Origin: a virus
Strand: one strand, 5' to 3'
DNA length: 17,023 bases
IMG/VR virus record: IMGVR_UViG_3300034024_000028
The notes below the pieces were generated by a model that worked only from the letters and a program-made list of their open reading frames with translations, searched no databases and had not been told where the DNA came from. Positions 1 to 17,023 of this stretch are shown here, one piece after another. Positions within the stretch are counted from its first letter, which is position 1; the number at the start of each line of letters is the position of its first letter. A program made the translations under genes and the position numbers.

Positions 1-127
1 ACATGGCCGCCAGGTACGGCTGATCTTTGAACGTCACCACGTCGAAATCCGCGGACAGCACCGTCATGACTTCCAGCGCCGTCCACGTGTAGCCCTCGAG
101 CACCGCTTTGATCGACTTGGCGCCGGT
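1..127. repeat. 127-bp terminal direct repeat identical to 16897..17023 (circular-assembly overlap; unit genome 16896 bp)
   Basis: Base-by-base comparison: acatggccgccaggtacggctgatc...gatcgacttggcgccggt occurs at both ends of the window with no mismatch. The repeat lies inside a coding region that reads through the junction. Confidence 0.95.
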
Positions 128-991: not shown

Positions 992-1405
992 CTACTCGGA
1001 GTCCGCGGCCGGGCCGCTGATACCCGGGGTGCCCGCGATGGCCGGGTCGATCTCACCCGGGGCCACGGACGGGTAGACGAAATCCACACCGGGCACCGCG
1101 GCCTGCCGCTCCCGGACCGGGATCGGAGTCACCGGCGCCGACGCGTCCGCGATCTGTAGACCGGCCTGCTTGCCGGTGAGCATCCCGCGAACGTCGTCCG
1201 TGGTCACCTGCCGGCCGCCGACGTTGGTCACCCCGAACGACTCGAGGTCCGACAACTGACCCTGCGACAGCACGAACTCGTGCTGCACCGGGGCGGCCAT
1301 GCCGGGACGGCTGGCACCGGCCGCGGCCAGCTGGCCGCGGAGATTCTCATTCTCGGCACGCAGCGCGTCACGCTCCGCGGCGATGTCTTCCTTGGTCTCC
1401 GCCAT
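992..1405 (-). CDS. hypothetical protein with N-terminal coiled coil (possible head decoration/scaffold-like; function unknown)
   Basis: ATG at 1405 is preceded by a perfect AAGGAG (1418..1413) with a 7-nt spacer. The product is MAETKEDIAAERDALRAENENLRGQLAAAG... (137 aa). The longer 151-aa version in the ORF track lacks an RBS. Confidence 0.7.
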   Translation of the reverse strand: MAETKEDIAAERDALRAENENLRGQLAAAGASRPGMAAPVQHEFVLSQGQLSDLESFGVTNVGGRQVTTDDVRGMLTGKQAGLQIADASAPVTPIPVRERQAAVPGVDFVYPSVAPGEIDPAIAGTPGISGPAADSE

Positions 1406-1486: not shown

Positions 1487-2818
1487 TTACGCCGGGTCGT
1501 ACTTGATCTCTCGCGTGCCGGCGAAGTCGATGACACCAAACGCCTTGTAACCCCAGATGCCGATGTCCACCCACGCCACCCGCCATTCGAGGTCGATACG
1601 CTCCGGGGCGGACGCCGCCGCCCAGACCTTGTCCGGGTCGAACGTCCACGACGACGCTTCGACCGTGCCACTGGCGGCCGTGGCCCATGACGGGATCCAC
1701 AGCATCCCGTGCGCGTCGATCGCGGTATAGCCCTCCTGCACCGTGCCGGACGCGTTCATCGGACCGATCTGCGGATACAGGGCCCGGCCGGCGGAGTCCT
1801 TCGCCGCCACCATCGCCTTATACAGGTCGATCTGCGTGAAGACCCGGCGGAAGCGGTTCCCGCCCCGGATGAACTGCAACGGCACCAGAGCCGCCTTGAT
1901 GGCCTGATCCAGTGCCGAGTCCACCGCCAGCGCCGTAATCGTGATGTCCGGGATCGACGCAGACGCCGCCACGAACTGCGCCTGCACGTACGCCTCGAGC
2001 GCTTCGTAGTAGGCACGGACCATCTGACGCCACAGGATGCCGTCCATTGCCGGATTGCCCAGCTGATCGACAGCCTCGCGGAGCACCTCGAGCTTCCCGG
2101 AGACCGGGGTCGGAGTGATGGTCTGCGTGGTGACCGCCATCGCACCCGGGGTCGGCTCGGTGCCGGACACGTGGTCCGCGACCAGGCCGGACGACGAGGA
2201 ATACTTCGGCAGCGTGAACGGCGTGATGTCGTCCAGCGTGCCCTTTTCCACGGCCTGCCACATCGGGTAGCCGTAATCCATCTGATCGACGTACAGGTCC
2301 GGACGCTGACGGTTGGGGTTCAGGCCGGCCACGTTCGTCGGAGTGACCGCGAAGCCATGCGCCGCGGGGTCCGGCTGTGCGGCCAGTGACACCTGACGCG
2401 CACGTTCGATCGGGTCCGCGAAAACCTGACGGATGAAGCCCGAGATCCGATCCTTGGCAGCCTGGTCACCCTGCTTGGCCGCGGCCACCAAGTCCTGCGC
2501 GAAGGAGTGCGTGCCGCGCCGCAGACGACCCTGCGCGTCGAAGACGTACGGGGACGCCTCTGTCACCTGCACCGGGCCGTGGTGCAGCGAGACCGGGGTC
2601 GGCCCGGCCCCCAGCGCCACGGCACCCTGCGCGGCCTGCCACGCCAGGAACGCATTGAACTGCGCCGCCGGATCGGGGCCCGGGACCGGCGCCGGGGTAC
2701 CCGGGACGGGTGGGGGAACGGGGGCCGGGGCCGGGGCCGGGGCCGTTTGCAGTTGGGCAGCGAACGTGGCGCACGCGATGTTGGGCGCGTGCGGCTTGCC
2801 GCAGTGCTGGCAGTGCAC
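1487..2818 (-). CDS. candidate nested in-frame gene: major capsid protein translated from an internal GTG (443 aa)
   Basis: A perfect AGGAGG (2831..2826), a 7-nt spacer (CAATCCC), then an in-frame GTG at 2818..2816 (codon 587). This falls just after the protease domain ends. By contrast, I see no recognisable SD upstream of the ATG at 4576. Confidence 0.4.
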   Translation of the reverse strand: MHCQHCGKPHAPNIACATFAAQLQTAPAPAPAPVPPPVPGTPAPVPGPDPAAQFNAFLAWQAAQGAVALGAGPTPVSLHHGPVQVTEASPYVFDAQGRLRRGTHSFAQDLVAAAKQGDQAAKDRISGFIRQVFADPIERARQVSLAAQPDPAAHGFAVTPTNVAGLNPNRQRPDLYVDQMDYGYPMWQAVEKGTLDDITPFTLPKYSSSSGLVADHVSGTEPTPGAMAVTTQTITPTPVSGKLEVLREAVDQLGNPAMDGILWRQMVRAYYEALEAYVQAQFVAASASIPDITITALAVDSALDQAIKAALVPLQFIRGGNRFRRVFTQIDLYKAMVAAKDSAGRALYPQIGPMNASGTVQEGYTAIDAHGMLWIPSWATAASGTVEASSWTFDPDKVWAAASAPERIDLEWRVAWVDIGIWGYKAFGVIDFAGTREIKYDPA

Positions 2819-4576
2819 GGGATTGCCTCCTGTCATGCTCGCGGCCACTTTGGTCACGCGCGCGTCGTCGAACGATGGCATGTACGTGGTAGACGTCTCG
2901 CGCCACGTCGCGCGGTGCACCTCGATGACACCCTCGTCATCAACCTTGATGTCGTCATCGGCCGGGTCCAGGCTGAAGTCCACGCCCACGGACAACCCGG
3001 AGTAAAGGCCGTGTTCCGCGTCGTAGAGCAGCTGATCCCGCTGCACCTTGGCCGGTGAGCCTTCCGGTCCGTCGAGCACCGCCAGGGCCACAACCGGGCC
3101 GGCCGCGGTATCGGTCACCGACCGGTGAAACCCGACCGGTGTCCCGTGATCCATCAGATGCGCCATGCGGGCCGGCTCTGAGTATTCGAGACTGCCCGGC
3201 ATGAATTTCATCTTCAGGCCGTATTTCGAGGTCACCACGCCGTACGGGACCGCCAGGCCGGTGATCGTGCGCGCCGCCGCGTCGACCTTCGGCGCCGGTG
3301 GCGGGGTGGCGAAGTCGGTCGCGCCGAACCGGTACGCCGCATCACCGGCGTCGAAGCGCACCGCGGCCCGGCCGCCCGCCGTGATCTCGAGCGGTGCGGG
3401 GCCGGTGGCCGCCGCCGGGGCCGGGCCGGACAGCCCAGCCCACCCGCGGATCTCATCTGCGTCCGTCACGCCCATCCCCTTAAGCGCTGCCCAATAGGCA
3501 GCCTGCTCCGCCGGTGAACTCTTGAGGTAGTCGGTGAGGTCGAACCGGGCAGCGTAGCCACGCTTCGTCACGTCACCCATCGACAGCCGATCCGTAAGCG
3601 CGCTCATGTACGGCGCGTACGTCCGGTTGATCTTGTCCTGTTTCTTGTCGACGGAGTTGAAGTACGTCCGCGACGTCACCGCCACCCCGAGATCCTCCGG
3701 GTCCACCCCCATGCCGTTCGCGATGGCCAGGTGTGCCTGTTGCCGGAGCTCTACCAGCGTGAGGTCCCGCGGCGACGGGGCCGTGACGTCCGCACGCTTG
3801 ACCGTGGACGGGATCCACCCGAACGGCCGCGACTGTCGCATCGCACCATACGACGCGAGGAATTCGTCGATGGCGTCGTCACTCAGCGGGTCCGTGTCCA
3901 GGTCATCCGCGTCGGTGAAGAACTCCCGCAGCGCCGGATTGTTGGCGTACATCTCCGTCAGGTTGTCCAGGAGACCGCAGATCCGGATGGCCCTGGCCTG
4001 CGCAGTGAGCAGACCCGGGTTGGGGGAGTCGAAACGGATCATGTCCGCGGCCGGCCACTCTGTCCACCCGCGGCCGTCGTCGAAGTCGACCCACACGTAT
4101 CGATGCGGCCGCAGCGGATCCGACGAGCGCAGACTGCGGGGGGGGTCCAGCTTGACCCGGGCTGGATCGATGCGCTTGACGGACACCGGGTAACCCTCGA
4201 AGTCCCGGCCGGTCACTTGCCACCACGCGACCTGGTCAAAGACGAGATCCTCGATGGTCATCGCCATGTGCAGGACGTTGGGCACGTCCGGGTCGAACTG
4301 CCGGAACAGCGGCGACTCCACCACGTTCAATCCGAGATACAGCCGCAGCGGAAGGGTGCCGACCGAGCACAGCTCATTGCGGCCGCGGAGCACCGCGGCG
4401 ACCTGCAACGCGGACGTCCGGGTCACCGACGTCCCGTCACGCATCGCCGCGATGACCCGGTCCACCGGCCGCGGGGCCGTGTCGAACGTGTGGAGAGGCT
4501 CGAGCTCAAGCGTCATCGGACGGGGCACGCTGAAGACTTCACGCACCATCTGCGCTGCTGCGCTCACCCATCCCAT
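1487..4576 (-). CDS. head morphogenesis polyprotein: HK97-type portal + prohead (S78/U35) protease + HK97-fold major capsid protein in one ORF
   Basis: Uninterrupted 1029-codon ORF.
- Portal (aa ~45-385, nt 3422-4444): TSALQVAAVLRGRNELCSVGTLPLRLY, SPLFRQFDPDVPN, PYMSALTDRLS...TDADEIRGWAGL.
- Protease (aa ~432-575, nt 2852-3283): ITGLAVPYGV, HLMDHGTPVGF (His477, nt 3146-3148), YSGLSVGVDF (Ser529, nt 2990-2992).
- Linker (aa 585-640): Cys cluster and Ala/Pro-rich stretch.
- Capsid region (aa ~640-1029): ends ...IDLEWRVAWVDIGIWGYKAFGVIDFAG.
It lies directly downstream of the large terminase gene. Confidence 0.85.
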   Translation of the reverse strand: MGWVSAAAQMVREVFSVPRPMTLELEPLHTFDTAPRPVDRVIAAMRDGTSVTRTSALQVAAVLRGRNELCSVGTLPLRLYLGLNVVESPLFRQFDPDVPNVLHMAMTIEDLVFDQVAWWQVTGRDFEGYPVSVKRIDPARVKLDPPRSLRSSDPLRPHRYVWVDFDDGRGWTEWPAADMIRFDSPNPGLLTAQARAIRICGLLDNLTEMYANNPALREFFTDADDLDTDPLSDDAIDEFLASYGAMRQSRPFGWIPSTVKRADVTAPSPRDLTLVELRQQAHLAIANGMGVDPEDLGVAVTSRTYFNSVDKKQDKINRTYAPYMSALTDRLSMGDVTKRGYAARFDLTDYLKSSPAEQAAYWAALKGMGVTDADEIRGWAGLSGPAPAAATGPAPLEITAGGRAAVRFDAGDAAYRFGATDFATPPPAPKVDAAARTITGLAVPYGVVTSKYGLKMKFMPGSLEYSEPARMAHLMDHGTPVGFHRSVTDTAAGPVVALAVLDGPEGSPAKVQRDQLLYDAEHGLYSGLSVGVDFSLDPADDDIKVDDEGVIEVHRATWRETSTTYMPSFDDARVTKVAASMTGGNPVHCQHCGKPHAPNIACATFAAQLQTAPAPAPAPVPPPVPGTPAPVPGPDPAAQFNAFLAWQAAQGAVALGAGPTPVSLHHGPVQVTEASPYVFDAQGRLRRGTHSFAQDLVAAAKQGDQAAKDRISGFIRQVFADPIERARQVSLAAQPDPAAHGFAVTPTNVAGLNPNRQRPDLYVDQMDYGYPMWQAVEKGTLDDITPFTLPKYSSSSGLVADHVSGTEPTPGAMAVTTQTITPTPVSGKLEVLREAVDQLGNPAMDGILWRQMVRAYYEALEAYVQAQFVAASASIPDITITALAVDSALDQAIKAALVPLQFIRGGNRFRRVFTQIDLYKAMVAAKDSAGRALYPQIGPMNASGTVQEGYTAIDAHGMLWIPSWATAASGTVEASSWTFDPDKVWAAASAPERIDLEWRVAWVDIGIWGYKAFGVIDFAGTREIKYDPA
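2721..2744. repeat. perfect hexanucleotide tandem repeat (GGGGCC)x4 on the plus strand; encodes APAPAPAP on the minus strand
   Basis: ggggcc ggggcc ggggcc ggggcc at 2721-2744, preceded by further G-runs (gggacgggtgggggaacg). It lies in the linker of the polyprotein gene. Confidence 0.95.
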
Positions 4577-4612
4577 GATCGGCAGTGTACGGCCCCGCGG
4601 CCTGCTTAGACC

Positions 4613-6142
4613 TCAGCCAGGCGGACCAGCGTGCACCCGTGTCGATCTCACCCGCACGGCTGGCATGGTCCGGGCCAGGTACACCGCACCCGCCGCGGCG
4701 TACGCGGCGTCCACGTGACCGCCGCCGGACCGGGCGAACACCCACCCGCCGCCGGCCGCCATCCGTTCGGCGCCGGTGACGTGATCGGTCAGCAGCGGAT
4801 CATCCGAACGAACCAGGGTGCCGCCGGTAACTTCCTTCGCGAACCCCATCACCACGGCTGGCGTATCCTGCCGGATCTCCGCCACCGTCACCCCCCGGGC
4901 CCGATCGACCGGGGTCCGCAACCGGGCCGCCATCGCCGCACCCGGGCCGGCCGGGAACCACCCGGCTGAGCGTGGCCGAACCTTCCGGAGCAGCCCCGGC
5001 CATGCGCGCTCCGCGTCAGAGAGCGCCATCGGCCCGGACCACGCGGCCACCAGCTCTACCCGGACCCGGCCGTCTTCCATCACCTGCGCGGCCGCGGCCG
5101 TGACGTGCGTGCCGTCCGGCGACGCGTCGATGCACAGCGCGATCCTTTTGCGCTCCGGCTGTAGCGGGCCCGGGTCCAGGGTCTTTTCCCATGCCGGGCC
5201 GGACACCGCCGGCCGTAGCACCTTGACCCGGATACACATGCGTTCCGTCTTGAAACCGTTCAGCGCCTCTCCGCCGAGACGCTTTGCCCGGCGGGCCCCG
5301 GCCAGCAGTACCTCGAGGTCCAGGCCGTGGCCCACCCGCGGGTTGGCCTGCAACAGCGCGTCCACGTCTTCCGGGTCCGCGTCATCCGGCGCCGACCACT
5401 CGAGCAGCCCTAGCCGCGGGTCACCCTCCCCGGTTTCGATGAAGTCCCGGGCCGAATCCTGAAGATCATTCAGCACGACGGACCGGGAGTCGCCGGCGTT
5501 GGACAGGGCCCAGATTTGCGCGTCCGGTGGCGAGCATGCCGGCTCGAATGCCTCCCACGCTTCATACGTGCGGTGCATGCGGAGTTCATCCGCGATGCCC
5601 CGGTTGATGGTCAGGGACCGGCCACCCTCCGCGTTGCTTGCCGCGATGAGGTAGCGGTCCCCCGCGTGCGTCCAAGACTCCGTCTCGCCGTTCGTCATCC
5701 GGAACCAGCGCCGTCCCGGCTCGTGGAAGTTGTGCAGGGACGGGGTCCGGCGGACCAGATTGACCGCCTTCAGCCACGACTCTTTCGCGTACTGAAGCTT
5801 CGTCGACGTGCCGAGGATCAGCGGCACGCGCTGCCGGAACTGCCACCACACGGACAGCCCTACAGGGAGCTCCGTCTTGCCGTTCTGCCGGGCCACGATC
5901 ACCAGCAGGATCCGGAACCGCGGCCGGCCGTCTTCGAGCAGCTCCCCGCCGTGGATAGCCGCGAAGCGCTGCCAGGGCAGCATGGGATGCCCGATCTCAT
6001 CCATGTAGTCGAGATACTCAAACCCGTACGACGTCTCCGGGGTGAGCTCCCGCAGGGGCGGAGTCCACACCCGCGGCGTGGCCCGGCCCAGCACCGGGCC
6101 GGACCCGGGAAGACCCGGCCGGACCACGTCGAGAATCGTCAC
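4613..6142 (-). CDS. terL: terminase large subunit (Terminase_1 / HK97-like)
   Basis: 509 aa. It has LPWQRFAAIHGGEL, a Walker A-like VIVARQNGKTE, a Walker B-like INRGIADELRMH, and a C-terminal nuclease-type region (IALCIDASPDG...). GTG start at 6142. It is followed by the portal-containing ORF. Confidence 0.9.
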   Translation of the reverse strand: MTILDVVRPGLPGSGPVLGRATPRVWTPPLRELTPETSYGFEYLDYMDEIGHPMLPWQRFAAIHGGELLEDGRPRFRILLVIVARQNGKTELPVGLSVWWQFRQRVPLILGTSTKLQYAKESWLKAVNLVRRTPSLHNFHEPGRRWFRMTNGETESWTHAGDRYLIAASNAEGGRSLTINRGIADELRMHRTYEAWEAFEPACSPPDAQIWALSNAGDSRSVVLNDLQDSARDFIETGEGDPRLGLLEWSAPDDADPEDVDALLQANPRVGHGLDLEVLLAGARRAKRLGGEALNGFKTERMCIRVKVLRPAVSGPAWEKTLDPGPLQPERKRIALCIDASPDGTHVTAAAAQVMEDGRVRVELVAAWSGPMALSDAERAWPGLLRKVRPRSAGWFPAGPGAAMAARLRTPVDRARGVTVAEIRQDTPAVVMGFAKEVTGGTLVRSDDPLLTDHVTGAERMAAGGGWVFARSGGGHVDAAYAAAGAVYLARTMPAVRVRSTRVHAGPPG

Positions 6143-6468: not shown

Positions 6469-6737
6469 CACAGCACCACGTCTTGGTAGCAAGGGAACAG
6501 CACATGGTCAGCGGCTGGCCGGCCACACCAGCAGCGAGGCACGTCTTCCCCTTTCCTAGCGTGCACCTGCGCGACGTGGTCTAGGGCCCGTTCGTTGATC
6601 ATCGGTAGCGTGTCCATCGGGTTGATGCCCACGCGCCAGGTCACCCCGCATCCCGGGTCTGCGCAGTACATGATCATGGTTTGTGTGGTGTGCATGATCC
6701 CGAATCGGATCATGCCCAGCGGGTCATCGGCTTGCAT
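6468..6737 (-). CDS. hypothetical Cys/Met-rich 89-aa protein
   Basis: ATG at 6737 is preceded by AAGGGGGA with a 6-nt spacer. The product is MQADDPLGMIRFGIMHTTQTMIMYCADPGCGVTWRV...PRCWCGRPAADHVLFPCYQDVVL. It overlaps the HNH 3' end by 28 nt. Confidence 0.6.
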   Translation of the reverse strand: MQADDPLGMIRFGIMHTTQTMIMYCADPGCGVTWRVGINPMDTLPMINERALDHVAQVHARKGEDVPRCWCGRPAADHVLFPCYQDVVL

Positions 6738-7000
6738 GGTGGATCCCCCTTCATCTTCGGTTCCCCCGTACTCAGGTTGCATGGTGCGCACGCCGCCTGC
6801 AGATGGGCCAGGTTGTCAGCCCTGCAGCCGGCGCACTTCGTCTTGCCGTGGACGTGGTGGACGTGCCCACCCCGTAAGAGCGCGTGTACGCGGCACACGC
6901 CAGGTAGGGCCAGCTGGCAGCGGTAGCCGTCCCTGGCGAGCACCGTGGCCCGGATCCGGCGCCATCGGCGCGTCGAGCCGGATTCCCATCCCTCACTCAT
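6710..7000 (-). CDS. HNH endonuclease (terminase-associated type)
   Basis: WRRIRATVLARDGYRCQ...GGHVHHVHGK...ADNLAHLQAACAPCNLSTG fits the HNH pattern (RDG..C, HH, N, C..CN). I placed the start at ATG 7000 because it overlaps the upstream stop (ATGAGTGA). An alternative ATG lies at 7033. Confidence 0.85.
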   Translation of the reverse strand: MSEGWESGSTRRWRRIRATVLARDGYRCQLALPGVCRVHALLRGGHVHHVHGKTKCAGCRADNLAHLQAACAPCNLSTGEPKMKGDPPCKPMTRWA

Positions 7001-7184
7001 CAGGCGACTGATAGACCGTTGGCCCCTGAGCATGCTTCGACTGCAGATGCTGCAGCTTGCCCGCCTCCATCAGCCCAATGGCTTCGATCGTCGTCAGGTC
7101 CTCAGGAACGGTGACCTCAATGCCGATGAGCTTGGAGCTGATGTCTTCCACTAGCGCGATCTCGATGACTCTACGAACGATCAT
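6993..7184 (-). CDS. hypothetical 63-aa protein, first gene after the octamer-repeat intergenic region
   Basis: ATG at 7184 with an upstream GAAGAGGGG. The codon pattern is consistent with coding. Its stop overlaps the HNH start. Confidence 0.6.
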   Translation of the reverse strand: MIVRRVIEIALVEDISSKLIGIEVTVPEDLTTIEAIGLMEAGKLQHLQSKHAQGPTVYQSPDE

Positions 7185-7283: not shown

Positions 7284-7431
7284 TGCACCCCGCATATGCA
7301 CCCCTTGACAAACCACCATGTGGGGTGCAACGCGCGGGGAAGCGAATCTCAGAAGCGCTTCTGTGGTGCACATGTGCTATCCGCCCAGCTCAAGGGCCAT
7401 TTGATCATCAGGCGGGGTGCACTGGGGTGCA
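7284..7431. promoter_or_regulatory. cluster of GGGGTGCA / TGCACCCC octamers (iteron-like; candidate origin or operator array)
   Basis: - TGCACCCC at 7284-7291 and 7297-7304.
- Reverse complement GGGGTGCA at 7322-7329, 7414-7421 and 7424-7431.
- A 7/8 copy (GTGGTGCA) at 7363-7370.
- A 10-bp palindrome gcacatgtgc at 7368-7377.
The cluster spans the helicase stop codon (7377-7379) and the 192-bp gap that follows it. Confidence 0.6.
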
Positions 7432-8810
7432 TTTTGGGTGTGCTGATCAAGGGTGACGTTCAGCCACGGCTTGTCCCTGTCCTTGATGAACACGGTGCCA
7501 GCGATCCGCACCCCGTAGTACCCGCGCTGCCCGCGCTTGATGGCGTACCGCAAGCCGGCCTGCCGGAGCAGCTCACTGATGTGCTGCACCCCCGTGTGCC
7601 GGTTCGGGTCACCGGAGTCGTGGACCTCCCACTCCCGGAACGCCTGGACGAGAATGGTGCCCTTATTCCACGTGTCTTCGTCCCGGACCGCCACGGAATC
7701 GGGGTCATTGACCCATCGGATGACCCGGTTCGCCTTTTCGGCCAATTCCGCATGTGCCGTATCCGCTGATTCCCCGCGGGTGAATTGGCCCTCTCGCATG
7801 AGCTCCCGGAGTGCGTCGACTGCCTTGACCGCGATGCCGGCCAACTCTTCGGGCGTGGTGCACCGCGCGGACAGTGTCGGGTCCGGTTTCGTTGGCTCGT
7901 AAGGGAAGTTGATGACTTCCCAGCGCCGTAGCCACCCCTTCGACGAGTCCGACGAGCCGATCATGGCGTTGGCTGAGAAGATGGCCTTACCCCAGAACAG
8001 GAACTTGAAAGGGTCTTTTCCTTTCCTCTCCGCGTCGATTTTGTCGTCACCCGCCAGCTCTTTGATCCGCCCCGTGTCCTCGATGAACTTGGCGTCGATG
8101 TCGCCGCACACGTTCGCCAATTTCCCGTGCAATTCGGCCGTGGCGAACTGCGTTTCCGCGAACCTGCGTAGCGGGATGGCCGAGAAGTTGTCATCGCCCA
8201 GCAGCGCGCGCACCACGTTCAGCAGCACCCCCTTCCCGTTCCCGCCGCCGCCGGTCAGCAGGAACAGCCGTTGCAGCGGGTTGCCGGACATCATCAGATA
8301 CCCGAGCAGCTGCCAGGCACGGTTTCGGTCGTCCTCAGGGAGCACCGAGGCCAAGAACGCGTCGAACTCCGGGCACGTGGCCGCGGGATCCCACGTGATC
8401 GGTAGCTGCACGCTCGAGAGACACGCGTCGTGGTGATCGATCAGCACCGGATCCGGGTCACCCCGCCATCGCAGCAGCCCGGACCGCATGTTGATCAGGT
8501 CGGACACCGGGGCCACTTCGAACTCCGCGCACGTACCGGCCAGCACTTCGAGCGTGGCCCGCAGGTGAGCCGGCCGGTACCGCTCTCCGAGCAGATGCAC
8601 GACCCGGCGCCGAATCTCTTTGTCATCGGGGCGCCACACGCCGGCCCGGTACACCCAGAACGTTCCCGCGGCGTCGACGAGCACCGGCCCGGACGCCGTG
8701 ACCGCGTCCGCGAGCTTGCCGGCCTTCAGCCCGTAGTCCGGGTGAAAGTACGCGGCCCCTGTGGACCACGTCACCGAACGATCTCGATGCGAACTCCGGT
8801 CCGAAACCAC
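7377..8810 (-). CDS. D5/P4-alpha-type SF3 helicase (phage/plasmid primase C-terminal domain family NTPase); no recognisable primase or polymerase domain
   Basis: Walker A in RLFLLTGGGGNGKGVLLNVV. D5_N-like CPEFDAFLASVLPEDDRNRAWQLLGYLM upstream of it. Then DAERKGKDPFKFLFWGKAIFSANAMIGSSDSSKGWLRRWEVINFPYEP. The start is uncertain: GTG at 8810 gives the longest ORF, while GTG at 8774 overlaps a small upstream ORF as GTGA. Confidence 0.85.
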   Translation of the reverse strand: MVSDRSSHRDRSVTWSTGAAYFHPDYGLKAGKLADAVTASGPVLVDAAGTFWVYRAGVWRPDDKEIRRRVVHLLGERYRPAHLRATLEVLAGTCAEFEVAPVSDLINMRSGLLRWRGDPDPVLIDHHDACLSSVQLPITWDPAATCPEFDAFLASVLPEDDRNRAWQLLGYLMMSGNPLQRLFLLTGGGGNGKGVLLNVVRALLGDDNFSAIPLRRFAETQFATAELHGKLANVCGDIDAKFIEDTGRIKELAGDDKIDAERKGKDPFKFLFWGKAIFSANAMIGSSDSSKGWLRRWEVINFPYEPTKPDPTLSARCTTPEELAGIAVKAVDALRELMREGQFTRGESADTAHAELAEKANRVIRWVNDPDSVAVRDEDTWNKGTILVQAFREWEVHDSGDPNRHTGVQHISELLRQAGLRYAIKRGQRGYYGVRIAGTVFIKDRDKPWLNVTLDQHTQNAPQCTPPDDQMALELGG

Positions 8811-12460: not shown

Positions 12461-14548
12461 TCACCATGCCTCTCGGTAGGGGGTCGCGACCCGGACGGGC
12501 GCCCCGATGATCTGCGCCTTCACGACGCCGTTCGTCGACCGGGTCAACGTCAACGTCTGGCGCCACGTCCCGGACACCAGCGCCGGGGCCGTGGCCGCGG
12601 TCACCAGCATGCGTTCCCCGGCCACGGCGATCGTGTACGGCAAGGACGTCGTCGACCACACGTCGGCCGGGTCCGGAGATCCCACGACCATCGTGACACC
12701 GGTGCTCGCCGGGGCCGGGGCCGTGATGATCGTGGAAGCGTACGCATCCAGGCGATGCGCGGTGTCGTCCTCACCGCCGACGTCGAACACGTCACCCGGG
12801 ATGCAGGTCAGGGTGAACTTCCACGCGTGCGTGCCGACTTCCTCCGTGATGCCGATGACGTGCAGATCGATCGGGTCGGACAGCCGACCGGTCACCAGGA
12901 TCCGGTCCCCGATCTCAAGCGCTTTGGCCGCGGCACGCAGCCCCGGAGAGCGGATCCCTACCTCAATGGTCACCGTGGGGAACCGCGGCCCGGGTACCGT
13001 GCCGCGGGCCAGATACCAGGCGGCCATGACGGGAAGGTCCGTGGTGGGGTCGAACAGGTTGACTTCCTCGTCCGGGAACGCGCCACCCTTGAAGACCCCG
13101 ATACCGTCCGGGTAGGCGGCCGTCGACATTGGCCCCGTGTTCCGGCTGGCCGCGGCCACGGCCCCTGACCGGTCCGTGATCGTGACGAAGTTCTGCACCC
13201 CGACGTTGTCCACCCGCTCTTTGAACGGGGGCACGATGTCCGTCCCGGCGGCCAGGGTCATCACGGCCGCCTGATTCATCCGGTGCCGCCGGGTCCGCAG
13301 GATGACTTGGATGGCGTCTTTCTTGTCGAAAATCAGCCCGTCTTCAGTGGCCGCTACCTCTTTCAGCAGATCCATCAGCCGGCCGGTCTTCTGCGGGCCC
13401 ATCTTCGTCGTCGTGGTGCCCTGCACTGCGTTCGAGATCCCCGCTTCCGACAGCAGGCGGGTGAACCGTGCCGCAGTGGTCTCCCCGCGGTAGCCCTCGA
13501 ACGACTGCAAGGCAGCGAAGGACTGCAAGTCATCCGCGACCCCAGACAAGGATCCGATCTGGGAATACCGGGTTCCGTTCACCAGGGAGTTGCCGTTGAT
13601 CCGCAGCGAGGTCAGCCGATCGATCGTGCCGGCCACTGACCGGGTCACCCCGAGCACCCCGTTAGCCGTCGTGTACCAGGCCAGCTCAAGCACGATGTTC
13701 CCGCCGGACTGATAGCACTTCGCCCGCCACGCCACCCAATCGAGGAAGTTGGTACCGCCGAACCCGTAACCCCCGGTGTCGATCAGCACCCCGCCGGAGT
13801 AAAGCCGGATCGTGAAGCTACCCGCGTCGATCTCCAAGGACCACAACAGCCCATTCGCACGCCACGTCATGAACGGCACCGGGGTCCCGATCACCGGCAT
13901 CGACCCCAGCTTGGTCGAGAAGAACACCTGAAACCCGGCCGTCGTCGACGCGTTCAGCGGCGACAGGACAACGGACGTGGTGGCCGATCCGACGAAGGAT
14001 GCCGTAGCCCCGGCCGGAGCCGACGCGTCTTGCAACGTCACCCCGGTGTAACTACGGGCCAGCCCGACCCGGGTCGACAGGGCAGCGTCGTCACCCGGCC
14101 ACAACCCGGTGAGGGTGGAGAACTGCAAGAACGTGCGCGTCATCGGCGGCTGTAGTTCGTCGGACCACTGCCCGATCCGGTACAGCGGCCCGTACGCGTC
14201 CAGGTCGATCCACCGCTTACCCCGCGGGCCCGCTTCGGTGAAGTCGGTGGTTTGGTCCGGGTCGAGCAGCGCGGTTTCCATCCAGGCCCGAAGTGACGCA
14301 TCGGCGGACAGGGCCACGCCCATCCCGCGGCCGGTGATGCCGTACAGCAGCGATGCCGGCCGGGACGGGTTCAGCGTGGGGGACGCGTTGTCATTGATCC
14401 GCATCGACATGTGCCCGGGGCGGATCGTGCCCTCATCGGTGTACCCCCGTTCGATCACCGTGGGGCGCTCGCCGGCCAGCACCGGCACCGTGTTCCATGT
14501 CGCGTTGTACCGCAGCTGCGGGGCAACGTTCGCAATCGGGGTCGGCAT
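12461..14548 (-). CDS. minor tail protein, distal-tail (Dit)-like; the only large baseplate-type gene
   Basis: 695 aa, directly after the tape measure gene (TGATG overlap). The N-terminus RPTVIERGYTDEGTIRPGHMSMRINDNASPTLNPSRPASLLYGI matches the siphovirus tail-component pattern. The C-terminus YTIAVAGERMLVTAA...TLTRSTNGVVKAQIIGAPVRV resembles the conserved end of actinophage minor tail proteins. Confidence 0.7.
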   Translation of the reverse strand: MPTPIANVAPQLRYNATWNTVPVLAGERPTVIERGYTDEGTIRPGHMSMRINDNASPTLNPSRPASLLYGITGRGMGVALSADASLRAWMETALLDPDQTTDFTEAGPRGKRWIDLDAYGPLYRIGQWSDELQPPMTRTFLQFSTLTGLWPGDDAALSTRVGLARSYTGVTLQDASAPAGATASFVGSATTSVVLSPLNASTTAGFQVFFSTKLGSMPVIGTPVPFMTWRANGLLWSLEIDAGSFTIRLYSGGVLIDTGGYGFGGTNFLDWVAWRAKCYQSGGNIVLELAWYTTANGVLGVTRSVAGTIDRLTSLRINGNSLVNGTRYSQIGSLSGVADDLQSFAALQSFEGYRGETTAARFTRLLSEAGISNAVQGTTTTKMGPQKTGRLMDLLKEVAATEDGLIFDKKDAIQVILRTRRHRMNQAAVMTLAAGTDIVPPFKERVDNVGVQNFVTITDRSGAVAAASRNTGPMSTAAYPDGIGVFKGGAFPDEEVNLFDPTTDLPVMAAWYLARGTVPGPRFPTVTIEVGIRSPGLRAAAKALEIGDRILVTGRLSDPIDLHVIGITEEVGTHAWKFTLTCIPGDVFDVGGEDDTAHRLDAYASTIITAPAPASTGVTMVVGSPDPADVWSTTSLPYTIAVAGERMLVTAATAPALVSGTWRQTLTLTRSTNGVVKAQIIGAPVRVATPYREAW

Positions 14549-16861: not shown

Positions 16862-17023
16862 TCAGACGGCCCCTCTCCCGAAAATGTCCAGATGGAACAT
16901 GGCCGCCAGGTACGGCTGATCTTTGAACGTCACCACGTCGAAATCCGCGGACAGCACCGTCATGACTTCCAGCGCCGTCCACGTGTAGCCCTCGAGCACC
17001 GCTTTGATCGACTTGGCGCCGGT
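16862..17023 (-). CDS. 3' end of the neck/tail-terminator-like gene (same gene as 1..373; 16897-17023 duplicates 1-127)
   Basis: The reading frame from 373 continues through position 1 into 16896 and ends ...FHLDIFGRGAV with TGA at 16864..16862, one nucleotide before the major tail ATG. Confidence 0.5.
   Translation of the reverse strand, partial: TGAKSIKAVLEGYTWTALEVMTVLSADFDVVTFKDQPYLAAMFHLDIFGRGAV
16897..17023. repeat. second copy of the 127-bp terminal overlap
   Basis: Identical to 1..127. Confidence 0.95.

Follow-up and report, generated by a model that had tools for sequence, protein, structure and literature searches.

The window analysed here, 17,023 nt of viral DNA held as IMG/VR record IMGVR_UViG_3300034024_000028, carries on its minus strand a single ATG-initiated open reading frame (ORF) of 1029 codons, followed by a TAA stop codon, at positions 1487-4576. 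The G+C content of the window is 61-72% and, because spurious long ORFs are frequent in DNA of 68-70% G+C, the coding status of this frame had to be demonstrated. The ORF is coding, and its sequence and those of its relatives are best read as two nested in-frame genes, the longer of which would join a phage portal, a prohead protease and a major capsid protein in one chain. The features of the locus are as follows, with amino acid (aa) positions counted from the first ATG.

1487..4576, minus strand: full-length ORF, predicted 110.9 kDa portal-protease-scaffold-capsid polyprotein; one open frame in 92 of 107 related loci
4584..4589, minus strand: TACACT, a -10-like hexamer (TANNNT) 7 nt before the ATG at 4576; proposed to drive a leaderless mRNA
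3437..4363, minus strand: predicted portal domain, HK97-type, aa 72-380 (Pfam PF04860, PHROG 12 and 2662, PDB profile matches)
3281..3430, minus strand: linker 1, aa 383-432; 44% Pro/Ala, of varying length; Phe residues are conserved, as is PAPxVD right before the protease
2837..3280, minus strand: predicted prohead protease domain, aa 433-580; His477 at nt 3146-3148, Ser529 at nt 2990-2992
2826..2831, minus strand: AGGAGG Shine-Dalgarno (SD) motif within the coding sequence (Thr-Gly-Gly, ACA GGA GGC), 7 nt (caatccc) before the GTG
2816..2818, minus strand: GTG, codon 587, proposed internal in-frame initiation codon; ATG or GTG in 50/50 aligned relatives
1487..2818, minus strand: proposed nested gene, 443 codons, 47.2 kDa scaffold plus capsid precursor; frame and stop codon common with the long ORF
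2771..2812, minus strand: zinc-knuckle-like motif C-x2-C-x3-H-x5-C, aa 589-602, directly after the internal start
2597..2770, minus strand: linker 2, aa 603-660; 53% Pro/Ala, length highly variable
2354..2596, minus strand: scaffold-like helical region, aa ~661-741, boundary approximate (helices in the AlphaFold (AF2) model; position as in Nocturne116 ORF18)
1490..2353, minus strand: predicted HK97-fold major capsid domain, aa ~742-1029 (PF25209, PHROG 2263, Foldseek)

Profile matches identify the N-terminal domain as an HK97-type portal. Pfam Phage_portal (PF04860) scored 53.5 bits against a gathering score of 39.1, with positions 14-320 of the 321 in the profile covered, and the portal families PHROG 12 and PHROG 2662 matched the same domain. 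A search of the PDB with a profile of the whole family returned portals alone, the HK97-family portal 3kdr at E 1.8e-9 and 9lbn at 1e-5. The narrower equivalog model TIGR01537 was not reached (27.4 versus 112 bits). The fusion ORF, which adjoins the large terminase gene (TerL), was the sole portal candidate, no other portal match being found among the larger ORFs of the window. A codon alignment of 50 complete ORFs held no conserved start codon in any column between portal and protease. The nearly invariant V430 was considered as a relic start at this junction and rejected; its codon is GTC in the window.

The segment at aa ~433-580 belongs, on sequence and model evidence, to the HK97 family of serine prohead proteases. 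PHROG 2263 ('major head protein', a protease plus capsid family) matched aa 430-945 at E 3e-23, and in a tblastn search of 50,697 phage records aa 433-580 showed 35% identity to the 'major capsid and protease fusion protein' of Arthrobacter cluster AN phages, within the N-terminal half of that protein. The motifs MDHGTPVG (aa 475-482) and GLSVGVDF (aa 527-534) contain His477 and Ser529, respectively, from whose place within them we infer a catalytic role; both residues were invariant in 50/50 relatives spanning 37-100% identity. An AF2 model of aa 425-586, with a predicted local distance difference test score (pLDDT) of 80, matched predicted HK97-family prohead proteases/COG3740 in the BFVD library searched with Foldseek (E 4e-9 to 1e-3, probability 1.0, TM ~0.5-0.6). 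The protein of phage Q54, which is related to the capsid polyproteins described below, was a structural match to this model.

The C-terminal part is probably an HK97-fold capsid protein, as judged from sequence profiles and a structural model. PF25209 (Phage_capsid_4) scored 26.1 bits, just short of its cut-off of 27, and is precomputed for several relatives. Upstream of the capsid domain, AF2 predicted helices at pLDDT ~87-92 for residues 90-140 of the internal product, and the scaffold-like region occupies the position of the central scaffolding domain in Nocturne116 ORF18 (PMC13595954). The zinc-knuckle-like motif was invariant in 32 closer relatives and present in ~40 of the 50 of the wider set, having been lost in some clades. 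It begins one residue downstream of the internal GTG, and it is unusual for a phage scaffold/capsid precursor to open with a zinc knuckle.

From sequence searches, the fusion architecture is conserved across a large clade of Actinomycetota phages and prophages. A search of 5.8 billion proteins gave 960 matches, more than 100 of them full length (54-96% identity, 1000-1080 aa) and mostly on ~17 kb contigs, and an exhaustive hidden Markov model (HMM) search of 1.84 billion representatives gave 373 clusters (50% identity) at E<=1e-30, with a length of at least 900 aa in roughly 65 of the best 150 clusters. An alignment-based scan of IMG/VR recovered 80 loci, down to 36% identity, and all of those not cut by a contig end were open for 960-1200 codons. 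Isolate genomes yielded nothing in a single-sequence scan, but an alignment-based scan of one genome per species succeeded, with 25 loci, many of them within large chromosomal contigs; the hosts represent at least 10 genera and include Micromonospora, Salinispora, Actinoplanes, Amycolatopsis, Kribbella, Saccharomonospora and Prauserella. Among the strains with the element are Salinispora vitiensis DSM 45548, Micromonospora mirobrigensis DSM 44830 and M. chokoriensis NRRL B-24750. Portal, protease and capsid lay in one uninterrupted frame in the 92 of 107 related loci listed above, down to ~30-36% identity, and an in-frame stop between protease and capsid occurred in 3/105 loci. Public labels of the relatives are 'phage portal protein', 'phage head maturation protease' or 'hypothetical protein'. 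Kribbella jiaozuonensis has two copies on different scaffolds (L093 and L105), whose fusion genes were matched identically in the scan. The copy in Micromonospora sp. M12 (L098) is broken into several frames, either as a decaying prophage or through error-prone assembly.

An earlier, sequence-only reading of the window had described one uninterrupted 1029-codon ORF, leaving its strand unstated, and had assigned to it a portal in the N-terminal part, a protease with both catalytic motifs intact and an HK97-fold capsid region to aa 1029. The frame was confirmed and placed on the minus strand, and the domain assignments held: the portal match is above the PF04860 threshold and is joined by the profile match to 3kdr, the residue numbers given for the protease motifs were correct and its fold was matched by Foldseek, and for the capsid region PHROG 2263 and the near-threshold PF25209 score were accompanied by Foldseek matches to capsids only. 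The same reading had warned that an assembly indel might have removed a stop codon; this was excluded through related contigs, as the fusion occurs in ~100 independent assemblies and in isolate genomes.

A second initiation signal is found at the end of the protease domain. In the codon alignment of the 50 complete ORFs the codon-587 column held ATG in 42 and GTG in eight, and AGGAGG, GGAGG, GGAG or AAGGA lay 5-9 nt before this start in the relatives. The SD motif was kept despite changes in the encoded residues (TGG replaced by KGKE, ERN or VKES), and the rare Gly codon GGA made up 75% of the Gly codons in the six codons upstream, compared with 5.9% elsewhere. An SD score of at least 5 was reached at 38 of the 50 codon-587 sites, compared with 1.5% of other in-frame start codons. 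By a uniform tblastn-anchored procedure, 101 of 105 loci had an SD motif and start codon just after the protease, and a strong SD was found there in 66 of 105 loci, compared with 4.8% of control windows. A scan for conserved synonymous sites gave no signal at the SD region, where the amino acids vary too much to leave same-residue pairs, and codon-usage and motif statistics were used in its place. From these sequence-level signals we infer that the SD motif and GTG587 start a 443-aa capsid precursor; the internal ribosome-binding site would probably allow the shell protein to be produced separately and in bulk. That a portal-protease-capsid fusion raises a stoichiometry problem in need of a special solution had been anticipated from the sequence, and the conserved SD and start at codon 587 support this, with the start at the protease/capsid rather than the portal/protease boundary.

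Some relatives are split and serve as natural controls for the nested start. Those with a joined portal-protease and a separate capsid are listed below.

L108, 4633-7619: portal-protease / capsid relative, stop exactly at the nested start
L109, 3577-6563: portal-protease / capsid relative, stop exactly at the nested start
L100, 1717-3899: portal-protease / capsid relative, frame change exactly at the nested start

In L108 and L109, assemblies of one relative from two independent samples, the portal-protease gene ends with '...VAASAY' and TGA at the nested-start position; a capsid gene of its own, for 403 aa, follows the TGA, its ATG preceded by GAAAGG and 8 nt. The free-standing capsid protein encoded by L108 matches aa 587-1029 of the window ORF from its very first residue (46% identity, E 1e-121) and opens with the same C-x2-C-x3-H-x5-C motif; the protein encoded upstream of it aligns with aa 51-532. 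The capsid gene of L100 lies in a different frame and has its own GGGAGG-ATG, and capsid-only representatives begin at profile position ~591. Relatives with a portal gene followed by a protease-capsid fusion (L097, L099, L104 and L101) form another group, which includes Nocardioides, Nostocoides and Decurro. In Arthrobacter phage Decurro (L081, KT355471) the separate portal gene overlaps the protease-capsid fusion gene (gp7) by 4 nt, and the fusion gene, at 3453-5036, has at codon 160 an in-frame ATG after GAAAGAGG, right behind the protease domain. The family displays every fusion state. By sequence comparison, the ancestor of the group's protease-capsid fusions seems already to have had the nested capsid start, with the in-frame portal added in the lineage of the window, and an unannotated nested capsid gene may be general in the protease-capsid fusions of cultured Arthrobacter phages.

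The start of the long form has a different layout. An SD motif before codon 1 was found in none of 43 relatives (0/43), although several other genes of the window do carry one. A TANNNT hexamer 6-8 nt before the start was present in 33 of 39 unique upstream sequences, compared with a background of 0.8%, and in 13 of 15 isolate-genome copies, the hexamers themselves being varied. In actinobacterial promoters the -10 element TANNNT lies ~7 nt from the transcription start, and leaderless mRNAs are frequent. The layout of the ORF start is probably that of a leaderless transcript beginning at the ATG. No promoter was returned for the ORF start by a generic sigma-70 scan, but such a scan needs an E. 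coli-like -35/-10 pair and actinobacterial promoters with TANNNT only are outside its scope. Short palindromes such as aggaaggtttcct were seen just upstream of the TANNNT in many relatives, ~20-40 nt further (e.g. L005, L007 and L014); these could be a late-gene operator or the terminator of the terminase gene.

The remainder of the window was consistent in orientation, every recognised gene lying on the minus strand. The neighbours and other assigned genes are as follows.

4613..6142, minus strand: TerL, directly upstream of the fusion gene (PHROG 9, E 1e-57)
6710-7033, minus strand: HNH endonuclease, close to the terminase
7377-8810, minus strand: D5_N/DUF5906 (D5-like) primase-helicase
992-1405, minus strand: gene for a 137-aa coiled-coil protein, just downstream of the capsid; start ATG 1405 preceded by AAGGAG and 7 nt
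12461-14548, minus strand: 695-aa protein (PHROG 5313, unknown function, E 9e-76)

The two ends of the window (1-127 and 16897-17023) are exact direct repeats of 127 nt, which indicates a complete genome of 16,896 bp that is circular or terminally redundant, and many relatives are on contigs of 16.5-18 kb. Further genes encode a head-tail adaptor, a tail completion protein, a short tape-measure/lysin-like protein and the 695-aa protein. The last of these probably serves in the tail or in host recognition and has an enzymatic domain, one segment being similar to the phosphodiesterase family PHROG 24476. The 137-aa protein has a coiled-coil N-terminus and gave no informative family match; it may be a decoration or accessory head protein, and its start is most likely ATG 1405 rather than GTG 1447. 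No integrase was identified in the window and no tRNA gene was found there, though relatives lie within isolate chromosomes; a tRNA search for attachment sites around the chromosomal copies found none within 10 kb.

We hold with fair confidence that the ORF is a head-assembly gene of a small (~17 kb) tailed actinophage, and the nested two-gene model taken as a whole is judged probable to the same degree. Under this model one mRNA would carry two independent initiation sites, the leaderless ATG and the internal SD/GTG587, with translation of the long form probably beginning at the 5' end and not depending on the internal site. The products would be a rare 110.9-kDa portal-protease-scaffold-capsid chain and an abundant 47.2-kDa scaffold-capsid precursor, and the two sites would set their ratio, with 12 portals per head, one protease on each, and the ~235 capsid precursors needed to build the T=4 shell expected of a 17-kb genome. 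Through its C-terminal scaffold and capsid segment the long chain would co-assemble with free precursor and so carry the portal ring and protease into the procapsid, after which the protease would cut the linkers and scaffold region to give free portal and mature capsid protein, the N-terminus of the latter being predicted near aa ~735-745. The co-assembly and self-cleavage steps are proposed by analogy with UL26/UL26.5, lambda C/Nu3 and protease-scaffold-capsid polyproteins such as Nocturne116 ORF18.

Several results weigh against this model. The relatives include split architectures at both junctions, so the covalent linkage is dispensable in principle. At the protease, TIGR01543 stayed below its cut-off (15.7 bits, E 0.012, versus 59; aa 471-577 aligned to profile positions 38-138 of 142), Pfam gave no match to the isolated segment even at E<=10, and Foldseek found no significant match for the model among solved structures, returning MCE/MlaD noise together with weak, non-significant matches to T4 gp21 and herpes proteases; a library of viral predicted structures was needed to place it. 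AF2 modelled the internal product poorly (pLDDT 56), and although only HK97-fold capsids and encapsulins came out on top in Foldseek (E 3e-5, probability 1.0), the TM was just 0.2-0.3, so with this model the fold search is suggestive at best. The TANNNT hexamer might instead belong to a regulatory or structural site of another kind, and read-through from upstream promoters via the terminase gene would yield leadered transcripts. Leaderless translation is also not necessarily weak in actinobacteria, so the predicted product ratio may not hold.

The stoichiometry could be met in another way if only the 1029-aa chain were made and cut into equimolar parts, the surplus being wasted and the SD-like motif serving, for example, in pausing. 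The uninterrupted frame holds its own protease, self-cleaving capsid polyproteins exist (PMC13595954, PMC8306868) and RNA-virus polyproteins offer a parallel. We consider this unlikely nonetheless: the start at codon 587 is kept in 50/50 relatives with an SD motif that persists through amino-acid changes and by use of rare codons, in L108/L109 and L100 a separate capsid gene does begin at this point, and with equimolar products ~95% of the portal and protease synthesised would go unused. A role for the SD motif in stimulating programmed frameshifting or termination, as in dnaX and prfB, so as to end a portal-protease product, would fit with the general use of internal SD motifs as frameshift stimulators and with the existence of portal-protease proteins of ~590-650 aa among the relatives. 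Those proteins end at an ordinary stop codon, however, no conserved slippery sequence was seen between the SD and codon 587, and the conserved feature is an initiation codon at the canonical spacing of 5-9 nt, which makes such a role very improbable. The chance that the fusion is an assembly or sequencing artefact or a decaying prophage gene, with a stop lost or an indel gained in this contig alone, is negligible. Nothing specific to the window points to it, although one relative (L098) is indeed broken into several frames; the same open frame was found in ~100 independent metagenome, virome and isolate assemblies and invariant residues are kept in all domains.

Given a genuine nested start, the covalent fusion itself may have no part in assembly, driving neither portal incorporation nor protease dosing nor shell nucleation, and be tolerated as compact expression of adjacent genes, with the protease separating the parts anyway; relatives function when split at either junction (Decurro, Nocardioides and Nostocoides at one, L108/L109 at the other), and the linkers vary and have low-complexity sequences. 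In linkers of such length one point mutation could bring back a stop, yet 92/107 loci stay open, and the protease-capsid linkage is almost universal, with the in-frame stop in just 3/105; this explanation is possible but somewhat doubtful. The fusion is argued to be non-neutral because a frame breakable by a single point mutation stayed open across deep divergence. A function can be proposed, as tentatively as its absence, in which assembly is nucleated by the portal-protease-capsid chain itself: with twelve long chains gathered into the portal ring, their capsid/scaffold domains, tethered on flexible Pro/Ala linkers, would seed the shell around the portal. If so, each procapsid would receive exactly one portal and a fixed twelve proteases, and self-cleavage would free the portal for packaging, a hard-wired genetic answer to single-portal placement in tailed phages and herpesviruses.

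For tailed phages and herpesviruses it is still debated how each capsid comes to contain one portal and a limited dose of protease. Here a large, diverse clade appears to make portal, protease and shell subunit as one chain, with sister lineages split at either junction, and these natural fused and split variants, together with the nested start, make the single-portal question testable by simple genetics. The nested start would explain how 12 portals and hundreds of shell subunits are obtained from one gene. For annotation, the predicted nested capsid gene is missed within genes labelled merely 'phage portal protein' or 'hypothetical protein'.

The sequence-only reading named no described portal-protease-capsid triple fusion, and full-text searches of the literature found no natural fusion of this kind and no nested capsid start in such genes; what they turned up were fusions of protease with capsid, of portal with MuF and, in engineered form, of the T4 portal. 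Both protease-capsid polyproteins and nested head genes are already known, and the joining of a portal to them appears to be new. In herpesvirus UL26/UL26.5 and phage lambda C/Nu3, a long, rare protease product and a short, abundant product from an internal in-frame start have a common C-terminus, and this common part brings the protease into the procapsid. Those systems differ from the window in that the shared part is scaffold rather than capsid, there is no portal, and homology is confined to the protease fold. HK97 has the same families in the same order, as gp3 portal, gp4 protease and gp5 with a scaffold-like delta domain plus capsid, and likewise fuses the scaffold function to the capsid, but it uses three separate genes and targets its protease non-covalently.

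Portal-MuF fusions, e.g. Arthrobacter cluster AK gene 6 (PMC5513430), show that actinophage portals tolerate fusion of a further head protein at their C-terminus. Their partner is a MuF-like minor head protein without a protease or capsid domain and, because it is needed in low copy, no stoichiometry conflict arises. Lactococcus phage Nocturne116 ORF18 combines protease, scaffold and capsid and is self-cleaved at Arg242/Ser243 (PMC13595954), and Pseudomonas phage PAJU2 has a self-processing capsid polyprotein (PMC8306868). Both have the N-to-C order of the window (protease, scaffold-like region, HK97-fold capsid), but they are without a portal domain and unrelated in sequence beyond the fold, and cleavage is experimentally established there but predicted for the window. 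The papers examined on small actinophage fusions (e.g. PMC5513430) make no mention of a nested capsid start. Protease-capsid fusions occur in these phages in Arthrobacter cluster AN (Decurro gp7/Maggie gp7), Microbacterium cluster EE and Rhodococcus RRH1, and these phages are the nearest cultured relatives by sequence, with the 35% identity over the protease given above. Like the window, small actinophages have genomes of ~15-17 kb and the gene order terminase, portal, protease-capsid, adaptor (PMC5513430); there the portal has a gene of its own, which lies in another frame and overlaps the fusion gene by 4 nt, whereas the portal of the window is fused in frame.

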